NCBI GenBank assembly: GCA_964590635.1
Contig: CAZPYX010000001.1
Coordinates: 550 to 64,549, forward strand
Reading direction: 5' to 3'
DNA from: an uncultured Bdellovibrio sp.
Lineage (GTDB): Bacteria; Bdellovibrionota; Bdellovibrionia; Bdellovibrionales; Bdellovibrionaceae
Length of the DNA: 64,000 bases
The notes under the pieces are model-generated. The model ran no database searches and was not told where the DNA came from. It worked only from the letters and a program-made list of their open reading frames with translations. Positions 8,370 through 47,945 of the stretch are shown here, in pieces (the stretch's first letter is position 1; every line of letters begins with the position of its first letter). Made by a program: the position numbers and the translations under genes.

Positions 8370-8590
8370 GTTTGGAATTTTCCCCTCGAGCGAGTTGGTG
8401 AAACTACAGATTCAATTCCGGTGAGTCAACGTGAACACTACGCAAAATAAAAACTATTGCTGCTCAAAAAATACGCACTACTACATGTGGAGGATAAAAC
8501 CGGGTTACAAAACTAGAGGCGCTGCGGAAAATTGATTTTTCCCAAATTCTTTTTCTTGCAAAAAAAATCTTCGTTTATTTCCGCCAGAAA

Positions 8591-8654
8591 GGAAAAGAGT
8601 GCCTGCTTCTTTCTCCGAGAAAGTAGCAGGCACCTTTTCCGAAAAGGTACCAGG
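8591..8654. repeat. Degenerate REP-like palindrome (GGTAC/GGTGC family)
   Basis: GGAAAAGAGTGCCTGCTTCTTTCTC paired with GAGAAAGTAGCAGGCACCTTTTCC, followed by a partial GAAAAGGTACCAGG; shares the GT(A/G)CCTGCT core with the copies at 32966 and 33619. Confidence 0.7.
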
Positions 8655-8677
8655 TGTTCCGAAAATTGTTTTGGGGC

Positions 8678-8711
8678 AAAAAAAAGCCCCGGTTTTGCCG
8701 GGGCTTTTTTT
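8678..8711. terminator. Bidirectional intrinsic terminator
   Basis: A-run, GCCCCGG-tttt-GCCGGGGC, T-run at the stop of the sigma54 regulator. Confidence 0.85.
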
Positions 8712-10236
8712 AGTTAACGTAGTCTTTTGCGACGATTCCGTATTTTTCGATCTTACGAAGAAGCGTCTTCTTCGGGATGTTGGCGTGAAGAGCCGTTTGA
8801 TTGATACGACCTCGGAATGTTTTAAGAGCTTTGATAATAAACTCTTTTTCGAAGGCTTCTTTTTGCGCATTGAAATCTAAACTTTCGTTGCCAGAATAAG
8901 GAACAATTTCTTCGCCATCAAGATCGGCAGAGTCATCGCCCATATCAGCATCTTCATCGTCACCCAAAGTGGCGTGAGCTTTGACCGCCGCTGACATTCC
9001 TGCAGAGGCAATATTCGCAGCCGTCTCCATAACAGGTGGTACATCGATCAAATTAGTTCCAGTTGCAAATAGCAAAGACTCAGGCAACGAAGCGATCGTG
9101 ATGATGTTTGTCATCTCAAGAACGAAAGCGTGTTCGATCACGTTTTCGAGCTCACGAATATTTCCCGGCCAAGCATGCTTTTTCAAAACGGACATCGCAT
9201 CTGGAGCGATTCCATTGATACGTTTGCCATGGGCAACATTGAACTTCTTGATAAAGATGTTCACCATGTGCTCCATGTCGTCTTTGCGTTCAGCCAAGGC
9301 AGGCAAGAATATAGGTACAACGTTCAAACGATAGAACAAGTCTTCACGGAATGTTCCCGCTTTGATCATGTCTTCCAGAGGTCTGTTAGTCGCGGCGATA
9401 ATACGAACATTCGCAGGGAATTCTCTGTTTGAACCTACTGGAGTGAAAAGCTTTTCTTGAAGAACGCGAAGGATTTTAACTTGCATGAGTTGAGGCATGT
9501 CGCCCACTTCATCCAAGAATAAAGTTCCGCCTTCAGCATATTGAAACTTCCCAATTTTGCGCTGATCAGCGCCTGTGAAAGAACCCTTTTCGTGACCAAA
9601 TAATTCAGATTCGAAAAGATTTTCTGGGATTGCAGAGCAGTTGATCGCAACGAATTTTTCGTCTTTGCGAGCCGAGTTAAAGTGAATTGCTTTAGCTACA
9701 AGTTCTTTACCTGTACCTGAAGAACCACGAATCAGCACTGGCGTGTCAACTTTAGCAAGACGGTGAATGATGTTAAATACCTTCTGCATTTGTGAGGTGT
9801 TGCCGATGATCTTGCGACCGGCTTCAACCATCACAGGAGCAGAGGCTGCCACATTTGAGATCAAGTTGTGAGCGTTTACAGCTTTGTCGATCAAAGCCAA
9901 CATGTCTTCGCTAGCTACGGGTTTTGCGAGATAGTTGTAGGCACCATCTTTAACAGCTTGAATAGCATCATTCAAAGTCGCATGTGCTGTCATTACGATG
10001 ACGATAATACCAGGATTGAATTCTTTGATTTGGCGAAGGGCTTCAAGACCGTTCATGCGAGGCATGTCGACGTCTAAGATCACAACGTCGTAGTTTTTGT
10101 CACCGGCTTTGATTTTCTCCATCGCATTGACACCGTCGAAAGCTTCGTCGATATCAAAACGTTGAGTGATAGCTAAGGCTGATTTTACCGAAAGTCTTAG
10201 ACCTTGATCGTCATCGACAACTAGGACCTTAAGCAT
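8710..10236 (-). CDS. NtrC-family sigma54-dependent response regulator
   Basis: REC (VVDDD, LDVDMP), Walker A GSSGTGKE, ESELFGHEKGSFTGA, FLDEV, WPGNIREL, acidic linker, Fis-type HTH. Confidence 0.95.
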   Translation of the reverse strand: MLKVLVVDDDQGLRLSVKSALAITQRFDIDEAFDGVNAMEKIKAGDKNYDVVILDVDMPRMNGLEALRQIKEFNPGIIVIVMTAHATLNDAIQAVKDGAYNYLAKPVASEDMLALIDKAVNAHNLISNVAASAPVMVEAGRKIIGNTSQMQKVFNIIHRLAKVDTPVLIRGSSGTGKELVAKAIHFNSARKDEKFVAINCSAIPENLFESELFGHEKGSFTGADQRKIGKFQYAEGGTLFLDEVGDMPQLMQVKILRVLQEKLFTPVGSNREFPANVRIIAATNRPLEDMIKAGTFREDLFYRLNVVPIFLPALAERKDDMEHMVNIFIKKFNVAHGKRINGIAPDAMSVLKKHAWPGNIRELENVIEHAFVLEMTNIITIASLPESLLFATGTNLIDVPPVMETAANIASAGMSAAVKAHATLGDDEDADMGDDSADLDGEEIVPYSGNESLDFNAQKEAFEKEFIIKALKTFRGRINQTALHANIPKKTLLRKIEKYGIVAKDYVN

Positions 10237-31780: not shown

Positions 31781-32962
31781 ATGAAGTTTCATTTCCCGAA
31801 GAGTCTCAAACCAGAACATATCGCTGAATCCGATTGGAACAATTGGACTTGGCAGCTTCGTCATTCCTTGAAGACGCAAAGTGATTTTGAAAAACATTTT
31901 GAGTTGAGTGCCGATGAGCGTGCCGCCTTCACTGAAGGTAAAGAGCTTTTCAATATTCGCACGACTCCTTATTATGCCAGTTTGTCTGGTGGCCCGGGTG
32001 AATCGATTCGTCAGATCTTGATGCCGCAACGTTTTGAGATTGAAGAAGGTTCACAACAAATGTTGGATCCTTTAGGGGAGCGCAAGAACAATCCGGCTCC
32101 GCGAGTGATTCATCGCTATTCAGATCGCGTTCTTTTTTTAATTACTGACATTTGCAGTGTGTATTGCCGTTTCTGCACCCGCAAACATTTTACCGGCCAA
32201 GAACAAGCGTTCATTCGCAACGAGGAGTACGAGCAAGCACTGGCTTATATCAAAAGCCACACAGGAATTCGCGAAGTCATTCTATCGGGCGGAGATCCGC
32301 TTACGGTCGGGGATGCCCAGTTAGAACGGGTATTGAGTGATCTGCGCAATATTGAACATATCGAAATTATTCGTATCGGTTCTCGCATGCCGGTTGTCTG
32401 TCCGATGCGTGTCACTGAAGATCTGGTGAAGATTTTAAAAAAGCACAAACCTGTTTTCTTGATGTCTCACTTCAACCATCCGAATGAATTAACCGCAGAA
32501 GCCGCAGCGGCATTGGAGTTGTTGGTTGATAACGGCGTTCCGGTGATGAATCAAATGGTTCTTCTGAACGGCATCAACAATCACGCTGCTTTGGTGCAAG
32601 CGCTGAATCGTCGTTTGTTGTATCTCCGTGTGAAGCCTTACTACATGTTCCAGTGCGATCCTTCCATCGGCACAGATCATCTGCGCACATCGGTCGAAGA
32701 TTCTTTGGAAATTCAAAAAGAGTTGTGGGGGCACTTGTCAGGATTGGCGATGCCAAACTTATCTTTGGACATCCCAAACGGCGGAGGCAAAACCTACCTC
32801 GTTCCAAATTTCCAAACCTCCCAAGAGGGCCTCACTCGCAACTTCACAGGCTGGGATGGCGTCGACGCCCAATACGTCAGCCCCTCACCAGACAAAATAA
32901 AAAAACCACTCCTAGGCCCTTATCAAACTGAGTGGTCTCACTTAAAAAACGGAAAATCCTAA
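31781..32962 (+). CDS. kamA: KamA-family radical SAM enzyme (lysine 2,3-aminomutase-like)
   Basis: HRYSDRVL, CSVYCRFCTRK, LSGGDPL, HFNHP, PYYMFQCD, PNGGGK (PLP lysine). Confidence 0.9.
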   Translation: MKFHFPKSLKPEHIAESDWNNWTWQLRHSLKTQSDFEKHFELSADERAAFTEGKELFNIRTTPYYASLSGGPGESIRQILMPQRFEIEEGSQQMLDPLGERKNNPAPRVIHRYSDRVLFLITDICSVYCRFCTRKHFTGQEQAFIRNEEYEQALAYIKSHTGIREVILSGGDPLTVGDAQLERVLSDLRNIEHIEIIRIGSRMPVVCPMRVTEDLVKILKKHKPVFLMSHFNHPNELTAEAAAALELLVDNGVPVMNQMVLLNGINNHAALVQALNRRLLYLRVKPYYMFQCDPSIGTDHLRTSVEDSLEIQKELWGHLSGLAMPNLSLDIPNGGGKTYLVPNFQTSQEGLTRNFTGWDGVDAQYVSPSPDKIKKPLLGPYQTEWSHLKNGKS

Positions 32963-32965
32963 AAC

Positions 32966-33058
32966 GTACCTGCTTCCTATTGGTTAAAAAAGGGAGCAGG
33001 TCGAACAAAGAATCTTAACGGTCTATGTACTTTTTTAAACCGTTAGGAAGCAGGTACC
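32966..33058. repeat. REP/MITE-like element with about 28-bp terminal inverted repeats
   Basis: GTACCTGCTTCCTATTGGTTAAAAAAG ... CTTTTTTAAACCGTTAGGAAGCAGGTAC between convergent stops. Confidence 0.85.
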
Positions 33059-33525
33059 TATCGGCCGGGTTTGTATTCGATGGTTAGGTGGGCGTAGTCG
33101 TTTTCGACTCCTTGAGAAAATGAAAGCATGTCTGCTGTGGTGAGGCTGTTGAATTGAAGCCATGTTGTTGTTGAAGAGAATGCTTTTGTCGTTGGTTGAT
33201 CGCGGTCCGTGACCCAGTACAAAACTTCGTAGGCTGTTTTATTAGCGACCTTAGATTGATATTGGCGAATGAGGAAGTGAACTCGGAACATTCTTAGCAT
33301 GTTCGTGCCTTTTCCACACCAAACATCCCAGTCCCATGCTCCAGGCTTATCAAAGACATGGGCACATTTTAAATCAATGGTTCCATCGTTCGACATGTAG
33401 TGAAAAGTCACATCGTCTTCCTTAAGTTCCTTGGTGCCGATTTCAGAGAAACCTTTTGGTGCCGCAAAAACAGAAGAGGAAAGGGTAATTACAGAGGCAA
33501 TAAGAAGTGCTTTGATTGTTTTCAT
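33058..33525 (-). CDS. Secreted hypothetical protein
   Basis: Signal peptide ending VFA, two Cys, 155 aa. Confidence 0.8.
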   Translation of the reverse strand: MKTIKALLIASVITLSSSVFAAPKGFSEIGTKELKEDDVTFHYMSNDGTIDLKCAHVFDKPGAWDWDVWCGKGTNMLRMFRVHFLIRQYQSKVANKTAYEVLYWVTDRDQPTTKAFSSTTTWLQFNSLTTADMLSFSQGVENDYAHLTIEYKPGR

Positions 33526-33592: not shown

Positions 33593-33617
33593 AAAAAAGG
33601 GCCCCGCCGGGACCCTT
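33593..33617 (-). terminator. Intrinsic terminator of the barrel gene 33732-34349
   Basis: AAGGGTCCC-ggc-GGGGCCCTT followed by a T-run on the minus strand. Confidence 0.65.
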
Positions 33618-33618
33618 C

Positions 33619-33720
33619 GAAAGGTACCTGCTTCCTATTGAGTTAAAAAGGGAGCAAGTACATCAATATATTTTAGCAGAGCAAGTACCTTTTTAATCCA
33701 ATAGGAAGCAGGTACCTTTC
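33619..33720. repeat. REP/MITE-like element, 102 bp, 33-bp terminal inverted repeats
   Basis: GAAAGGTACCTGCTTCCTATTGAGTTAAAAAGG ... CCTTTTTAATCCAATAGGAAGCAGGTACCTTTC (two mismatches); same family as the 32966 copy. Confidence 0.9.
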
Positions 33721-33731
33721 GTCTCTTTCGG

Positions 33732-34349
33732 TTACCAGATAACTGAGAAGTTCAAGATTGCTACTTCGATACCCATGTCGATGTCACCTTTTTTAACAAA
33801 GCGAAGTTCCGGAGCGTAGCTAACGTTGTTCCAAAGAGCGAAACGTTTACCGCCGCCGAAGAAAAGACCAAATTTAGTTTCATAGTCAGTTTCTCTGTCA
33901 TTCAATACAGAGTACAAGCCAATACCAGCTTTTAAGAAGAAGGCATTTTTAAGATCAGATTGGAAATTGTAAGCACCCACACCCGCGATGTCGAAAAGTG
34001 TTTTGCTGTCTCCGGTAGGTGAAACCTCTTTAGAAAGCATTTGAATACGACCTTCTCCACCGACTTGGAAACCTTCTTTGAGGTAGTGAAGATAAGAAGC
34101 ACCAATGTCGATCACTGTTCCAGTTGATGCATTTTTAGAACGTTTTTCAGAAATGAACACACCACGAGTCAAAAGAGTTGTGAACTCGTTCTCATTGCTT
34201 CCACCAGCAAGGAAAGACTCTGTAGAAGAATAACTTCTTTCCACAGGAGCAGCTTTAGCTACGTAAGTATTAGACGATTTAGTTTTTGCACCGGCAACTG
34301 ACGTGAACGCCATTGCTACAGCAGCTAGGGATACGATCAACTTGTTCAT
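33732..34349 (-). CDS. Small outer-membrane beta-barrel protein
   Basis: Signal peptide, about eight amphipathic strands, C-terminal Trp. Confidence 0.8.
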   Translation of the reverse strand: MNKLIVSLAAVAMAFTSVAGAKTKSSNTYVAKAAPVERSYSSTESFLAGGSNENEFTTLLTRGVFISEKRSKNASTGTVIDIGASYLHYLKEGFQVGGEGRIQMLSKEVSPTGDSKTLFDIAGVGAYNFQSDLKNAFFLKAGIGLYSVLNDRETDYETKFGLFFGGGKRFALWNNVSYAPELRFVKKGDIDMGIEVAILNFSVIW

Positions 34350-46350: not shown

Positions 46351-46379
46351 AAGGCTGTCCGCGGACGGCCTTTTTTTTT
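46351..46379 (+). terminator. Intrinsic terminator
   Basis: AAGGCTGTCC-gc-GGACGGCC followed by a 9-T run. Confidence 0.8.
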
Positions 46380-46452
46380 GATCACGGCTCTGGAACTTTC
46401 TCGTTTCGAGCTTTCTCTTGCCTTTGTCGTTAAGACTGCTATCGTTTTTTTC

Positions 46453-47295
46453 ATGAAACACATCTTAATTACTGGCGCATCGACGGGCATTGGGCATGAA
46501 CTGACCGCAAAATTTCTTGAGCGAGGATATTTTGTTTGGGCGGGAGTAAGAAAGCCTGAAACTTTGGCAAGCTTGAAACAAAAATTTTCAGATCGCTTGG
46601 AAGTTTTAAAACTGGATGTGACAGTAAACTCTGACATTGAAAGCGCACACCAAAAGATCGCTCAAGCTGGAGTGACTGATTTTGCGTTGGTTAACAATGC
46701 CGGAATCGCTTTAGGTGGTCCGATTGAAGCCATCGAAATAGAAGAGTGGAAAAAACTCTTCGAAGTGAATGTTTTTGGATTGCTGCGGGTGACTCAGATC
46801 TTCTTGCCGTTATTGCGAAAAACCAAGGGACGGGTTGTGAATATAGGCTCCATCAGTGGCCGCATGTCGAGTCCTTTTCTAGCTCCCTACACCAGTTCTA
46901 AACATGCCGTCCGTGCAATAACGGACTCCTTAAGACGGGAGCTACGCAGTTTAGGAGTGAAGGTCGTTCTTATCGAACCCGGTCCAATCAAAACTGAAAT
47001 CTGGGATAAATCCATCGAGAGTAGCCGCAAACTAGAAACCAAAATCTCGCCAGAGCTACAATCCGTTTACGGAGAAGCCCTAGACAATCTAGTATTGGCA
47101 GTAGAAGAGGTCGCCAGAAATGCCGTTCCAACTTCCCACGTAACTGAAAAAGTAATCAAGGCCATCGAACTAGAAAACCCATACCCCTACTACCTAGTAG
47201 GAAAAGGCATCCACCTACAAGCACTCGTCCTCAGAGTAATACCAGTACGTTGGCTAGACGCCATCTTCGCCCGAGGATTCCGCTTCCAAAAATAG
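46453..47295 (+). CDS. SDR-family oxidoreductase
   Basis: TGASTGIG, NNAG, YTSSK; start moved to ATG 46453. Confidence 0.93.
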   Translation: MKHILITGASTGIGHELTAKFLERGYFVWAGVRKPETLASLKQKFSDRLEVLKLDVTVNSDIESAHQKIAQAGVTDFALVNNAGIALGGPIEAIEIEEWKKLFEVNVFGLLRVTQIFLPLLRKTKGRVVNIGSISGRMSSPFLAPYTSSKHAVRAITDSLRRELRSLGVKVVLIEPGPIKTEIWDKSIESSRKLETKISPELQSVYGEALDNLVLAVEEVARNAVPTSHVTEKVIKAIELENPYPYYLVGKGIHLQALVLRVIPVRWLDAIFARGFRFQK

Positions 47296-47367
47296 GTACG
47301 GACACACTTATGGTGTCGCAACCGCGTCAAATAACGCGTCAGCGACACCATAAGTGTGTCCGTACCT
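47294..47367. repeat. REP-like element with a perfect 26-bp inverted repeat
   Basis: AGGTACGGACACACTTATGGTGTCGC (47294-47319) and its exact reverse complement (47342-47367), with a 22-nt spacer. Confidence 0.9.
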
Positions 47368-47373
47368 TTCGGG

Positions 47374-47670
47374 TTAGTGAGTGAACTTGCTTTTGATTTC
47401 GTCGTATTTGTGTTCGACTTTGTCGCTGAGTTTTGCCATCCAGCTTTTTGCTGTTTCATCGTCGATGTGTAGGCTGCTCATGAGGGAATGGACTTTTTTG
47501 CTGGCTTCTTCTTTTGAGAGGCCGGTTCTTTCGCAGACGAGATTGATCAGGTCGTCGGGACTTGCCATTGCTTTTTTTAATTCGTCTTCGGAGAGATTTA
47601 AATTGGAGAATTGGCTCTTCAACGCGTTGGAAATTTCACCGAATTTTCCCTGAAACATTTGAGTGTCCAT
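47374..47670 (-). CDS. CsbD-like small stress protein
   Basis: FQGKFGEISNALKSQFSNLNLSEDEL resembles the CsbD pattern; AAGGAGGA RBS before ATG 47670. Confidence 0.6.
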   Translation of the reverse strand: MDTQMFQGKFGEISNALKSQFSNLNLSEDELKKAMASPDDLINLVCERTGLSKEEASKKVHSLMSSLHIDDETAKSWMAKLSDKVEHKYDEIKSKFTH

Positions 47671-47945
47671 GGTATCCTCCTTCTCGACTTTCATCGAGGT
47701 TTCGTTGAATTAGGGCTCCTCTTTAAGGGCACTCCTCTTGCAGTGTTTCGTCAATGGAAGTAGCCGCTTTGTTTCAAAGATCATGGCCCTTACTAATTTC
47801 ATTTTGTTGTCTTTAGCGGATTTCTGACGCCAAAACTTTGACTAGCGTCAGAGAATTTTTGCATGGAAACATTTTCCTCACAGGCAAAAATTGCCTCTAA
47901 TCAAATATGTTAGAAGGCAATGAGCAGAGCTAGACCAGAGTCCTG

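Follow-up and report, generated by a model that had tools for sequence, protein, structure and literature searches.

In a 64,000-nucleotide stretch of the genome of an uncultured Bdellovibrio sp. (contig CAZPYX010000001.1 of assembly GCA_964590635.1; hereafter the window), the ends of certain genes are filled with codons that end in A or C, and these genes run straight into the arm of a short palindromic element with a GGTACC-type foot. The contig derives from a rock metagenome, and its named relatives are Bdellovibrio sp. NC01 and B. svalbardensis. The skew is a derived recoding of open reading frame (ORF) ends that run directly into such an arm, which resembles the repetitive extragenic palindromic (REP) sequences of other bacteria, and it occurs at stop-to-arm distances of 0 to about 11 nt. 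After the element arrived, the synonymous sites of the last 30-90 codons went from G or T to A or C by every mutational route. An earlier note on this DNA had pointed to a mirror-image skew at one of these elements and had taken it for a local mutational footprint; that the footprint is derived and tied to the element was upheld, while the specific C>T and A>G damage mechanism proposed for it was not.

Recoded gene ends at two hairpins

The first site lies between a kamA-family gene, whose best homolog is a Bdellovibrio sequence of 95% identity, and a convergent gene for a signal-peptide protein (Table 1). Fifty-two of the last 64 codons of kamA end in A or C (third positions C 31, A 21, T 8, G 4), compared with 131/329 (0.40) of the codons before them (binomial p = 1.4e-11), and the C/G ratio over its final 78-200 nt is 1.8-2.6. 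The opposing gene ends in A/C-ending codons at 18 of its last 18 positions, 33 of its last 40 and 48 of its last 64. The counts of 52/64 and 18/18 on which the earlier note was built are thereby reproduced exactly. Copy 1 of the element, 94 nt long, occupies the entire spacer separating both stop codons, and the TAG stop of the opposing gene corresponds to the TA of ...GGTACCTA. Its arms are 88% complementary, and the left arm is also self-folding. No T-run was found in copy 1 and no terminator-like site at 32960-33060, which leaves it outside the definition of an intrinsic terminator; the sole canonical terminator near this site is that at 33596-33618 on the minus strand.

The second site lies between a short-chain dehydrogenase/reductase (SDR) gene and a CsbD-like gene. 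Its hairpin carries a small palindrome (GACAC..GTGTC) inside each arm and, as far as its sequence goes, looks like a REPIN-style doublet. The hairpin itself supplies the SDR stop codon, the TAG of a TAG-GTAC junction, and at this stop the SDR protein is truncated by 5 aa relative to B. svalbardensis and by 3 aa relative to NC01. On the other side, the CsbD-like gene has a fraction of A/C-ending codons (AC3) of 0.74 overall, with 72/90 in its skewed stretch and 33/40 in its last 40 codons. Bacteria usually avoid the tetranucleotide CTAG, yet the 270 nt of the SDR tail (47023-47292) contain six copies of it, a by-product of the recoding of leucine to CTA.

With gene calls taken as greedy ORFs, nothing comparable is found elsewhere in the window. 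In the remaining 56 ORFs every 18-codon window stays below 17/18 (n = 17,535), 64-codon windows peak at 47/64 or below (n = 14,959), and 40-codon sliding windows with at least 31/40 come almost exclusively from the tails of kamA, its opposing gene, 46378..47295(+) and 47374..47694(-). The convergent pairs without the element that the earlier note had named for comparison are indeed unskewed, at no more than 41/64. Its description of the strand 3' of the hairpin as G/T-rich on both sides is matched at both hairpins, where the A+C content of the plus strand falls from 0.60-0.75 on the left to 0.28-0.38 on the right, over about 150-270 nt. Chance and a general gene-end effect are ruled out by the window counts, the pooled loci and the element-free counts.

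Table 1. Coordinates of the genes, skewed tails and palindromic elements within the window.
Feature	Coordinates	Strand	Remarks
kamA-family radical SAM gene	31781..32962	+	393 aa; ORF, with homologs named KamA family / lysine 2,3-aminomutase
A/C-third-position tail of kamA	32768..32959	+	last 64 codons
Type-1 palindromic element copy 1, CGTACCTGCTTCC...GGAAGCAGGTACC	32965..33058	.	arms 32966-32991 / 33032-33057
Opposing gene, signal-peptide protein	33058..33525	-	155 aa ORF; convergent with kamA
A/C-third-position tail of opposing gene	33061..33210	-	last ~50 codons
Canonical intrinsic terminator of OMP-like gene 33732..34349	33596..33618	-	conserved in relatives
Element copy 2, type-1	33618..33721	.	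34-nt arms, 94% complementary
SDR gene	46378..47295	+	convergent with 47374..47694(-)
A/C-third-position tail of SDR gene	47023..47292	+	last 90 codons 77/90; last 40 codons 38/40
Second GGTAC...GTACC hairpin	47294..47367	.	34-nt arms, 91% complementary, 6-nt loop
CsbD-like gene	47374..47694	-	A/C-rich third positions at 47377..47634, codons ~21-106

The skew follows the element

Orthologous gene ends that lack the element lack the skew. Copy 1 is missing at seven of the loci compared (L019, L020, L022, L049, L050, L051 and L052). At the six kamA loci without it (L019, L020, L022, which is NC01, L049, L050 and L051) the kamA tails score 25-36/64, and orthologs of the opposing gene without the element score 6-9/18 and 23-37/64; the spacers at these ortholog sites are 4 nt long, absent because the genes overlap, or made up of other, unrelated DNA. 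At the second site, B. svalbardensis (L052) has a 21-nt spacer without a hairpin and scores of 25/90 for the SDR gene and 51/90 for the CsbD-like gene, and NC01, which also lacks the element, scores 38/90 and 52/90; the CsbD-like orthologs as a whole range over 43-52/90.

The association extends well beyond the window. Scans with the arm sequence place the repeat family, chance matches aside, in Bdellovibrio genomes and metagenome-assembled genomes (MAGs) only, with three elements in the 64-kb window and about 45 arms in the others, all of them intergenic; the element ends are mostly preceded by AAA or ATA. For a pooled test, 27 Bdellovibrio loci were scored by the number of A/C-ending codons in the last 40 of each ORF. 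Ends whose stop lies within 15 nt of a GGTRCC-type arm (n=30) score 29.7/40, with 22/30 at 28/40 or above. The corresponding figures are 19.3/40 and 1/186 for ends without the motif (n=186; p=8e-13 for the arm-abutting ends against these) and 19.0/40 and 0/22 where the motif lies 16-250 nt from the ORF end (n=22). Of the first 165 ORF ends, the 11 with the strongest skew all lead straight into an arm, and at five further element-free loci, picked by homology alone, none of 88 ends is skewed. The skew is thus neither equally strong at element-free ends nor absent from most other copies, the two outcomes that would have spoken against the footprint: it is seen at most other stop-abutting copies, in several Bdellovibrio species. 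Counted back from the stop, it is 0.83 over the final 10 codons, then about 0.76 as far as codon 30 and about 0.6 as far as codon 60, fading into the baseline around codon 110.

Persistence of the recoded state is visible in one orthologous pair from two MAG species. The tails of L018 2543-4447 and of L029 (reverse complement, tail ending at 1420) both end in TAG directly followed by GTACC, and both are skewed (30/32 and 28/32 A/C). Given that the position of the element and the skew are common to both, the insertion is older than the divergence of the two species, with the skew retained ever since. Divergence between the two tails is not raised and A<->C swaps dominate; no excess at equilibrium is predicted by selection and by DNA-level rewriting alike.

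The kamA junction itself carries other palindromes in other Bdellovibrio lineages, unrelated in sequence and without skew. One locus (L020, 4977-5446) has long GC-rich inverted repeats within a 470-nt spacer, and another (L050, 11183-11240) has a GTACTAAGAGAA..TTCTCTTAGTAC hairpin 13 nt past the stop; neither gene end is skewed. From these sequences, the junction seems to be a recurrent landing site of palindromic elements.

Distance and context

The skew goes with proximity of the stop codon to the arm: 21 of 27 ends with the stop 11 nt or less from an arm are skewed, against 0 of 5 at 15 nt or more (p=0.002). The comparisons with non-abutting ends rest on small samples, namely 5 distant arms, about 3 gene starts, and 1 clean within-element control each way. 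One such control is the L007 hairpin with its two identical arms: a 93-aa gene that ends 8 nt from one arm scores 32/40, and the other side, which faces a terminator and a 41-nt spacer, scores 20/40, the spacer itself not being A/C-rich. Copy 2 provides an internal control within the window. Its place is between the OMP-like gene 33732..34349(-), whose stop is 15 nt off, and that gene's intrinsic terminator, and it shows little or no skew on either flank (23/40). It is absent in five related genomes and, with two arms almost the same in sequence, is probably young.

No skew is seen at gene starts facing an arm at a distance of 80-100 nt, and none goes with canonical terminators 7-13 nt past the stop. 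A single arm followed by an ordinary terminator suffices (L001, L013, L018, L029). As a general property of stop-abutting REPs the skew finds no support in Escherichia coli K-12, where, in a pilot of seven REP-abutted ends (15 nt or less from the stop), 17.9 A/C-ending codons were counted against 17.4 expected. Beyond coding sequence, one flank stands out: at L010 6124-6271, a 148-nt non-coding stretch between an arm and the start of a 1008-aa gene has an A+C content of 0.67-0.68. On the arm-sense strand its composition is A.39, C.28, G.14, T.18, the most extreme among 94 upstream regions; non-abutting outer flanks have a mean A+C of about 0.57.

Nature of the change

Third-position changes specific to the window were polarised with relatives as outgroups, and parsimony on nearly saturated synonymous sites makes the resulting counts approximate. 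In the four tails 39 of 53 ancestral G/T sites have changed to A or C, against 38 of 147 in the gene bodies (p=2e-9), and the opposite change, from A/C to G/T, is suppressed four-fold (3/38 in tails, 24/86 in bodies; p=0.017). The tail gains comprise 23 T>C, 6 G>A, 5 G>C and 5 T>A, giving a transition:transversion ratio of 29:10, or 2.9, as against 28:10, or 2.8, in the bodies. The transversion G>C is about five-fold raised (5/20 in tails, 3/60 in bodies), and T>G stands at 0/33.

The resulting composition is simple. At four-fold degenerate sites the tails have A.33, C.40, G.07 and T.20 (controls.21/.22/.19/.37), near a one-parameter model that gives A and C an equal advantage, and at two-fold sites C ends.79 of the pyrimidine codons and A ends.76 of the purine codons. 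Leucine is carried by CTC and CTA in 73% of cases against 14%. The codons that are rarest in the genome dominate the tails (CTA rises from.06 to.34, CTC from.08 to.39 and GTA from.14 to.41, and ATA likewise), and the rare G-ending codons CGG, AGG, GGG and CCG vanish. The sites that moved are the third positions and, in addition, the first position of leucine codons (T>C). The rule is one of nucleotide composition and not of tRNA choice, because TTA, an A-ending codon, loses ground to CTA, going from.17 to.03. Amino-acid composition is hardly shifted, and the tail proteins are orthologous to the final residue.

Searches for something more specific within the tails or the element came back empty. 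Enrichment of k-mers in the tails yielded only codon artefacts and no specific motif, and comparison with known RNA families gave no match, only sub-threshold hairpin look-alikes. That the tails are an extension of the inverted repeat was rejected, in-register identity being 0.21-0.25 against a null of 0.26-0.27 and the proteins being orthologous. Rejected as well was the idea that the tails protect the folding of the hairpin from competing structure: the element folds equally (29-33 expected pairs) with unskewed ortholog tails.

Proposed selection on the transcript

The explanation favoured here, on sequence evidence and with a probability of about 0.4, is selection, or a selection-like fixation bias, on the mRNA-sense strand, by which the 3' coding tail would be shaped into a tract resembling a Rho utilization (rut) site that feeds the element. 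The part of the transcript leading into the element would be kept C-rich, G-poor, richer in A than in U and less able to pair, a composition that would suit either a tract for Rho loading (rut) or a 3' tail free of structure. With no U-tract of its own, the palindromic element might serve as a pause or as a 3'-end structure. Since an effective arm lies no farther from the stop than roughly a terminating ribosome would cover, translation termination beside the arm may form part of the trigger. Candidate readers of the A/C tract are Rho, a factor that binds the arm, or an RNase whose attack the tract would evade.

Such selection is supported by the derived state of the tails and its association with the element, by the selection-like kinetics of the changes (gains through transitions and transversions in the background ratio, reverse changes held down), by the dependence on context and by composition. 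The pooled tails have a C/G ratio of 1.69 against 0.97, with C/G above 1.3 in 83% against 16% of tails, an A/U ratio of 2.2 against 1.2, and 12.4 against 8.0 pyrimidine-C (YC) dimers per 78 nt; the four tails of the window have C/G ratios of 1.4-2.6. Calculated in silico, the minimum free energy per nucleotide is 20-40% weaker in the tails than in their orthologs. The tails are thus of the composition by which Rho-dependent terminators are recognised, C-rich, G-poor and weakly structured over some 70-80 nt or more. REPs are reported to be partial Rho-dependent terminators without poly-U, and a C>G skew is typical for Rho-dependent terminators (bioRxiv 10.64898/2026.03.23.713779). REPs 15 nt or less from the stop are described as stalling ribosomes (Liang et al. 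2015, as cited in PMC12306157).

Several findings weigh against selection on the transcript. In at least six strongly skewed tails (L001, L013, L014, L018, L023, L029) the arm is followed 40-100 nt downstream by a canonical intrinsic terminator, and Rho is consequently not needed for 3'-end formation there. A hairpin within the ribosome footprint is insufficient and the arm sequence is specifically needed, since canonical terminators 7-13 nt after the stop produce no skew. The non-coding flank at L010 is as A/C-rich as the tails, and this is not explained by selection on the transcript; together with the outer flanks of about 0.57 it fits a polar effect at the level of DNA better. Purine:pyrimidine totals at four-fold sites are unchanged, as a transition-driven process predicts. 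The reduction in structure is modest and computed only, and the hairpin folds just as well with unskewed tails. Finally, the age of the insertions confounds the stop-to-arm distance threshold.

Competing explanations

The alternative with the most in its favour places the process in the DNA. A sequence-specific enzyme, an HUH/RAYT-type or other nuclease, would nick the outer end of each arm, and the strand 3' of the nick would be repeatedly displaced or resynthesised, gaining G and T through single-stranded damage or G.T-type misincorporation, so that the coding strand of the inward-pointing gene turns A/C-rich. We consider this unlikely, though it deserves serious weight. It accounts for the polarity on both sides of both hairpins; for the extent of the skew, similar on the two sides of one element and different between elements (about 200/150 nt and about 270/260 nt); for the gradual decay, with AC3 at.83,.77,.76 and.61 and baseline by about 110 codons; for the sufficiency of a single arm (L001, L013) and the need for the arm sequence, ordinary terminators and E. 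coli REPs being without effect; and for the skewed non-coding flank at L010, the constant purine:pyrimidine totals at four-fold sites and the T>C change at the first position of leucine codons. Yet the transversions G>C and T>A have risen in proportion to the transitions, changes from A/C to G/T are suppressed, and T>C is no weaker than G>A, unlike hydrolytic deamination, in which adenine reacts far more slowly than cytosine. The identical arms of L007 have skew on the ORF-abutting side only, no strong skew appears at stop-to-arm distances of 15 nt and above, copy 2 is unskewed on both sides, and gene starts facing arms are unskewed as well. No nuclease gene has been identified and no RAYT was seen, within a coverage of 64 kb of the source genome and 8-21-kb pieces of relatives and with no search aimed at a RAYT/HUH gene. 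Much of this tells equally against the C>T and A>G damage to single-stranded DNA that the earlier note had invoked: the spectrum against relatives is not transition-only (29:10, with 28:10 in bodies), T>C is enriched at least as much as G>A, the reverse changes are suppressed four-fold, and the effect depends on ORF context and not just on distance along the DNA (L007; arms at 15 nt or more). In a more general form, the arm would recruit an activity that directionally rewrites the adjacent 100-300 nt, whether by nick-primed error-biased resynthesis or in a homing-like manner, which we think doubtful. A selfish or domesticated repeat would then leave a strand-polar hypermutation tract that purifying selection filters to synonymous sites, and this too we would call improbable, to about the same degree.

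The remaining possibilities are far weaker. Read-through from the opposing gene might form R-loops past the hairpin, exposing a G/T-rich non-template strand in a self-reinforcing manner; G-rich non-template strands favour R-loops, and the polarity fits convergent pairs. The skew is, however, also present where a bidirectional intrinsic terminator separates the arm from opposing transcription (L001, L013, L018), the spectrum is not transition-only, and orthologous pairs without a terminator, with ends that overlap or lie 4 nt apart, must read through and are nonetheless unskewed. Because of these terminator-less convergent pairs, read-through alone, which the earlier note had offered as a possible cause, cannot produce the skew, and the R-loop model as a whole is very improbable. 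There is likewise little chance that the tails were not made in place, either because the element targets A/C-rich DNA or because tail and element arrived together as a recombination patch from a donor with other codon usage. The mild A/C-richness of the outer flanks (about 0.57) could reflect an A-rich target preference, and AAA or ATA usually precedes the element ends; but nine orthologous tails without the element are unskewed, tail proteins are orthologous through the last residue, the flanks are not extended inverted repeats, and there is no known donor with 80-95% A/C-ending codons on both strands, so that a patch would merely shift the question to the donor lineage. The least probable account, scarcely credible, is translational selection, in which tail codons are chosen for the speed or accuracy of decoding, whether these be optimal codons or rare ones grouped on purpose ahead of a roadblock. 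The trigger distance does resemble a ribosome footprint, and C- and A-ending codons pair in Watson-Crick fashion with G34/U34 tRNAs. Against it, the rarest codons CTA, CTC, GTA and ATA become dominant while the rare codons CGG, AGG, GGG and CCG vanish, and TTA gives way to CTA (.17 to.03). Codon optimisation and a rare-codon ramp were accordingly rejected, the shift going to the rarest and not to the preferred codons of the genome and obeying a nucleotide rule.

Relation to known systems

The element has much in common with the REP, BIME (bacterial interspersed mosaic element) and REPIN sequences of gamma-proteobacteria, which are associated with RAYT/TnpA_REP, a Y1/HUH gene present in single copy and usually with REPs on its flanks. 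Both are short, multi-copy, extragenic imperfect palindromes, often in inverted doublets, with a conserved tetranucleotide at the foot of the hairpin and no U-tract, and both lie at gene 3' ends and in convergent spacers, often 15 nt or less from the stop (PMC6006769; PMC12306157). The arms of 26-34 nt, with sub-hairpins, fall within the size range of REPs (imperfect palindromes of ~21-65 nt). The guide sequence of REPs, GTAG/GTGG at 0-2 nt 5' of the hairpin (PMC6006769), is not found; the foot of every Bdellovibrio arm is (G)GTAC(C). Nor do E. coli REP-abutted ends show an A/C skew in the pilot (n=7), unlike those that abut the Bdellovibrio element. With Rho-dependent terminators the tails share a C-rich, G-poor tract of 80-250 nt, enriched in YC dimers and less structured, ahead of a hairpin that has no U-run. 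They differ in that the Bdellovibrio tract lies inside a translated ORF, in that A is raised and U lowered as strongly as C and G are shifted, and in that several skewed tails also carry a downstream intrinsic terminator.

The mirror-image composition, G+T against A+C with a change of sign at a point, recalls the strand skew that replication and transcription produce, as at a replication origin. The Bdellovibrio tails are, however, 5-10 times more extreme than chromosome strand skew (AC3 0.8-0.95 against 0.41 and 0.51 by strand), span only 100-300 nt, are not transition-only and depend on ORF context. Diversity-generating retroelements provide another parallel, as there too directional change is limited to the last part of an ORF, with a hairpin or cruciform immediately downstream. 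In the Bdellovibrio tails there is no template repeat and no adenine-specific pattern, and no reverse transcriptase was seen; moreover, diversity-generating retroelements diversify the protein, whereas the changes in the tails are synonymous and conserve it. A literature search found no description of a Bdellovibrio REP or RAYT, of repeat-linked codon skew or of synonymous gene-end recoding. Element and tails amount to a REP-like repeat and an upstream tract with C in excess of G, each of a known kind, with a real chance of repeat-driven directional mutagenesis.

Implications

Few non-coding elements are as common in bacteria as REP-like repeats, whose function is still debated. Here, a repeat family is tied to a strong, cleanly bounded recoding (AC3 0.8-0.95 over 30-90 codons) that is replicated across several species. 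Should selection be responsible, 3'-end synonymous sites would be under selection as strong as in ribosomal-protein genes, presumably for the fate of the mRNA 3' end (Rho loading, avoidance of RNases, or termination beside a structured element), and natural matched pairs would be at hand in which the same protein tail is recoded or not. Should the arm instead direct the rewriting of its flanks, bacteria would have their first described case of local directional mutagenesis driven by a repeat. A mutational origin would also matter to models of genome evolution, to dating based on synonymous divergence (dS) and to the detection of horizontal gene transfer, given that recoded tails look foreign in their codon usage. 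On either reading, anomalies in gene-end codon usage can be used to find and date such elements.

Other features of the window

Palindromes of the same flavour (GTGCCTGCTTC...GAAGCAGGCAC and GGTACC) occur at 8560-8660, in a 340-nt spacer past the terminator of 8710..10236, and the adjoining gene end is unskewed (23/40). For the window as a whole, AC3 is about 0.41 in plus-strand genes and about 0.51 in minus-strand genes. The plus strand comprises T 18483, G 14930, A 17496 and C 13091, and is G/T-rich as is expected of a leading strand.

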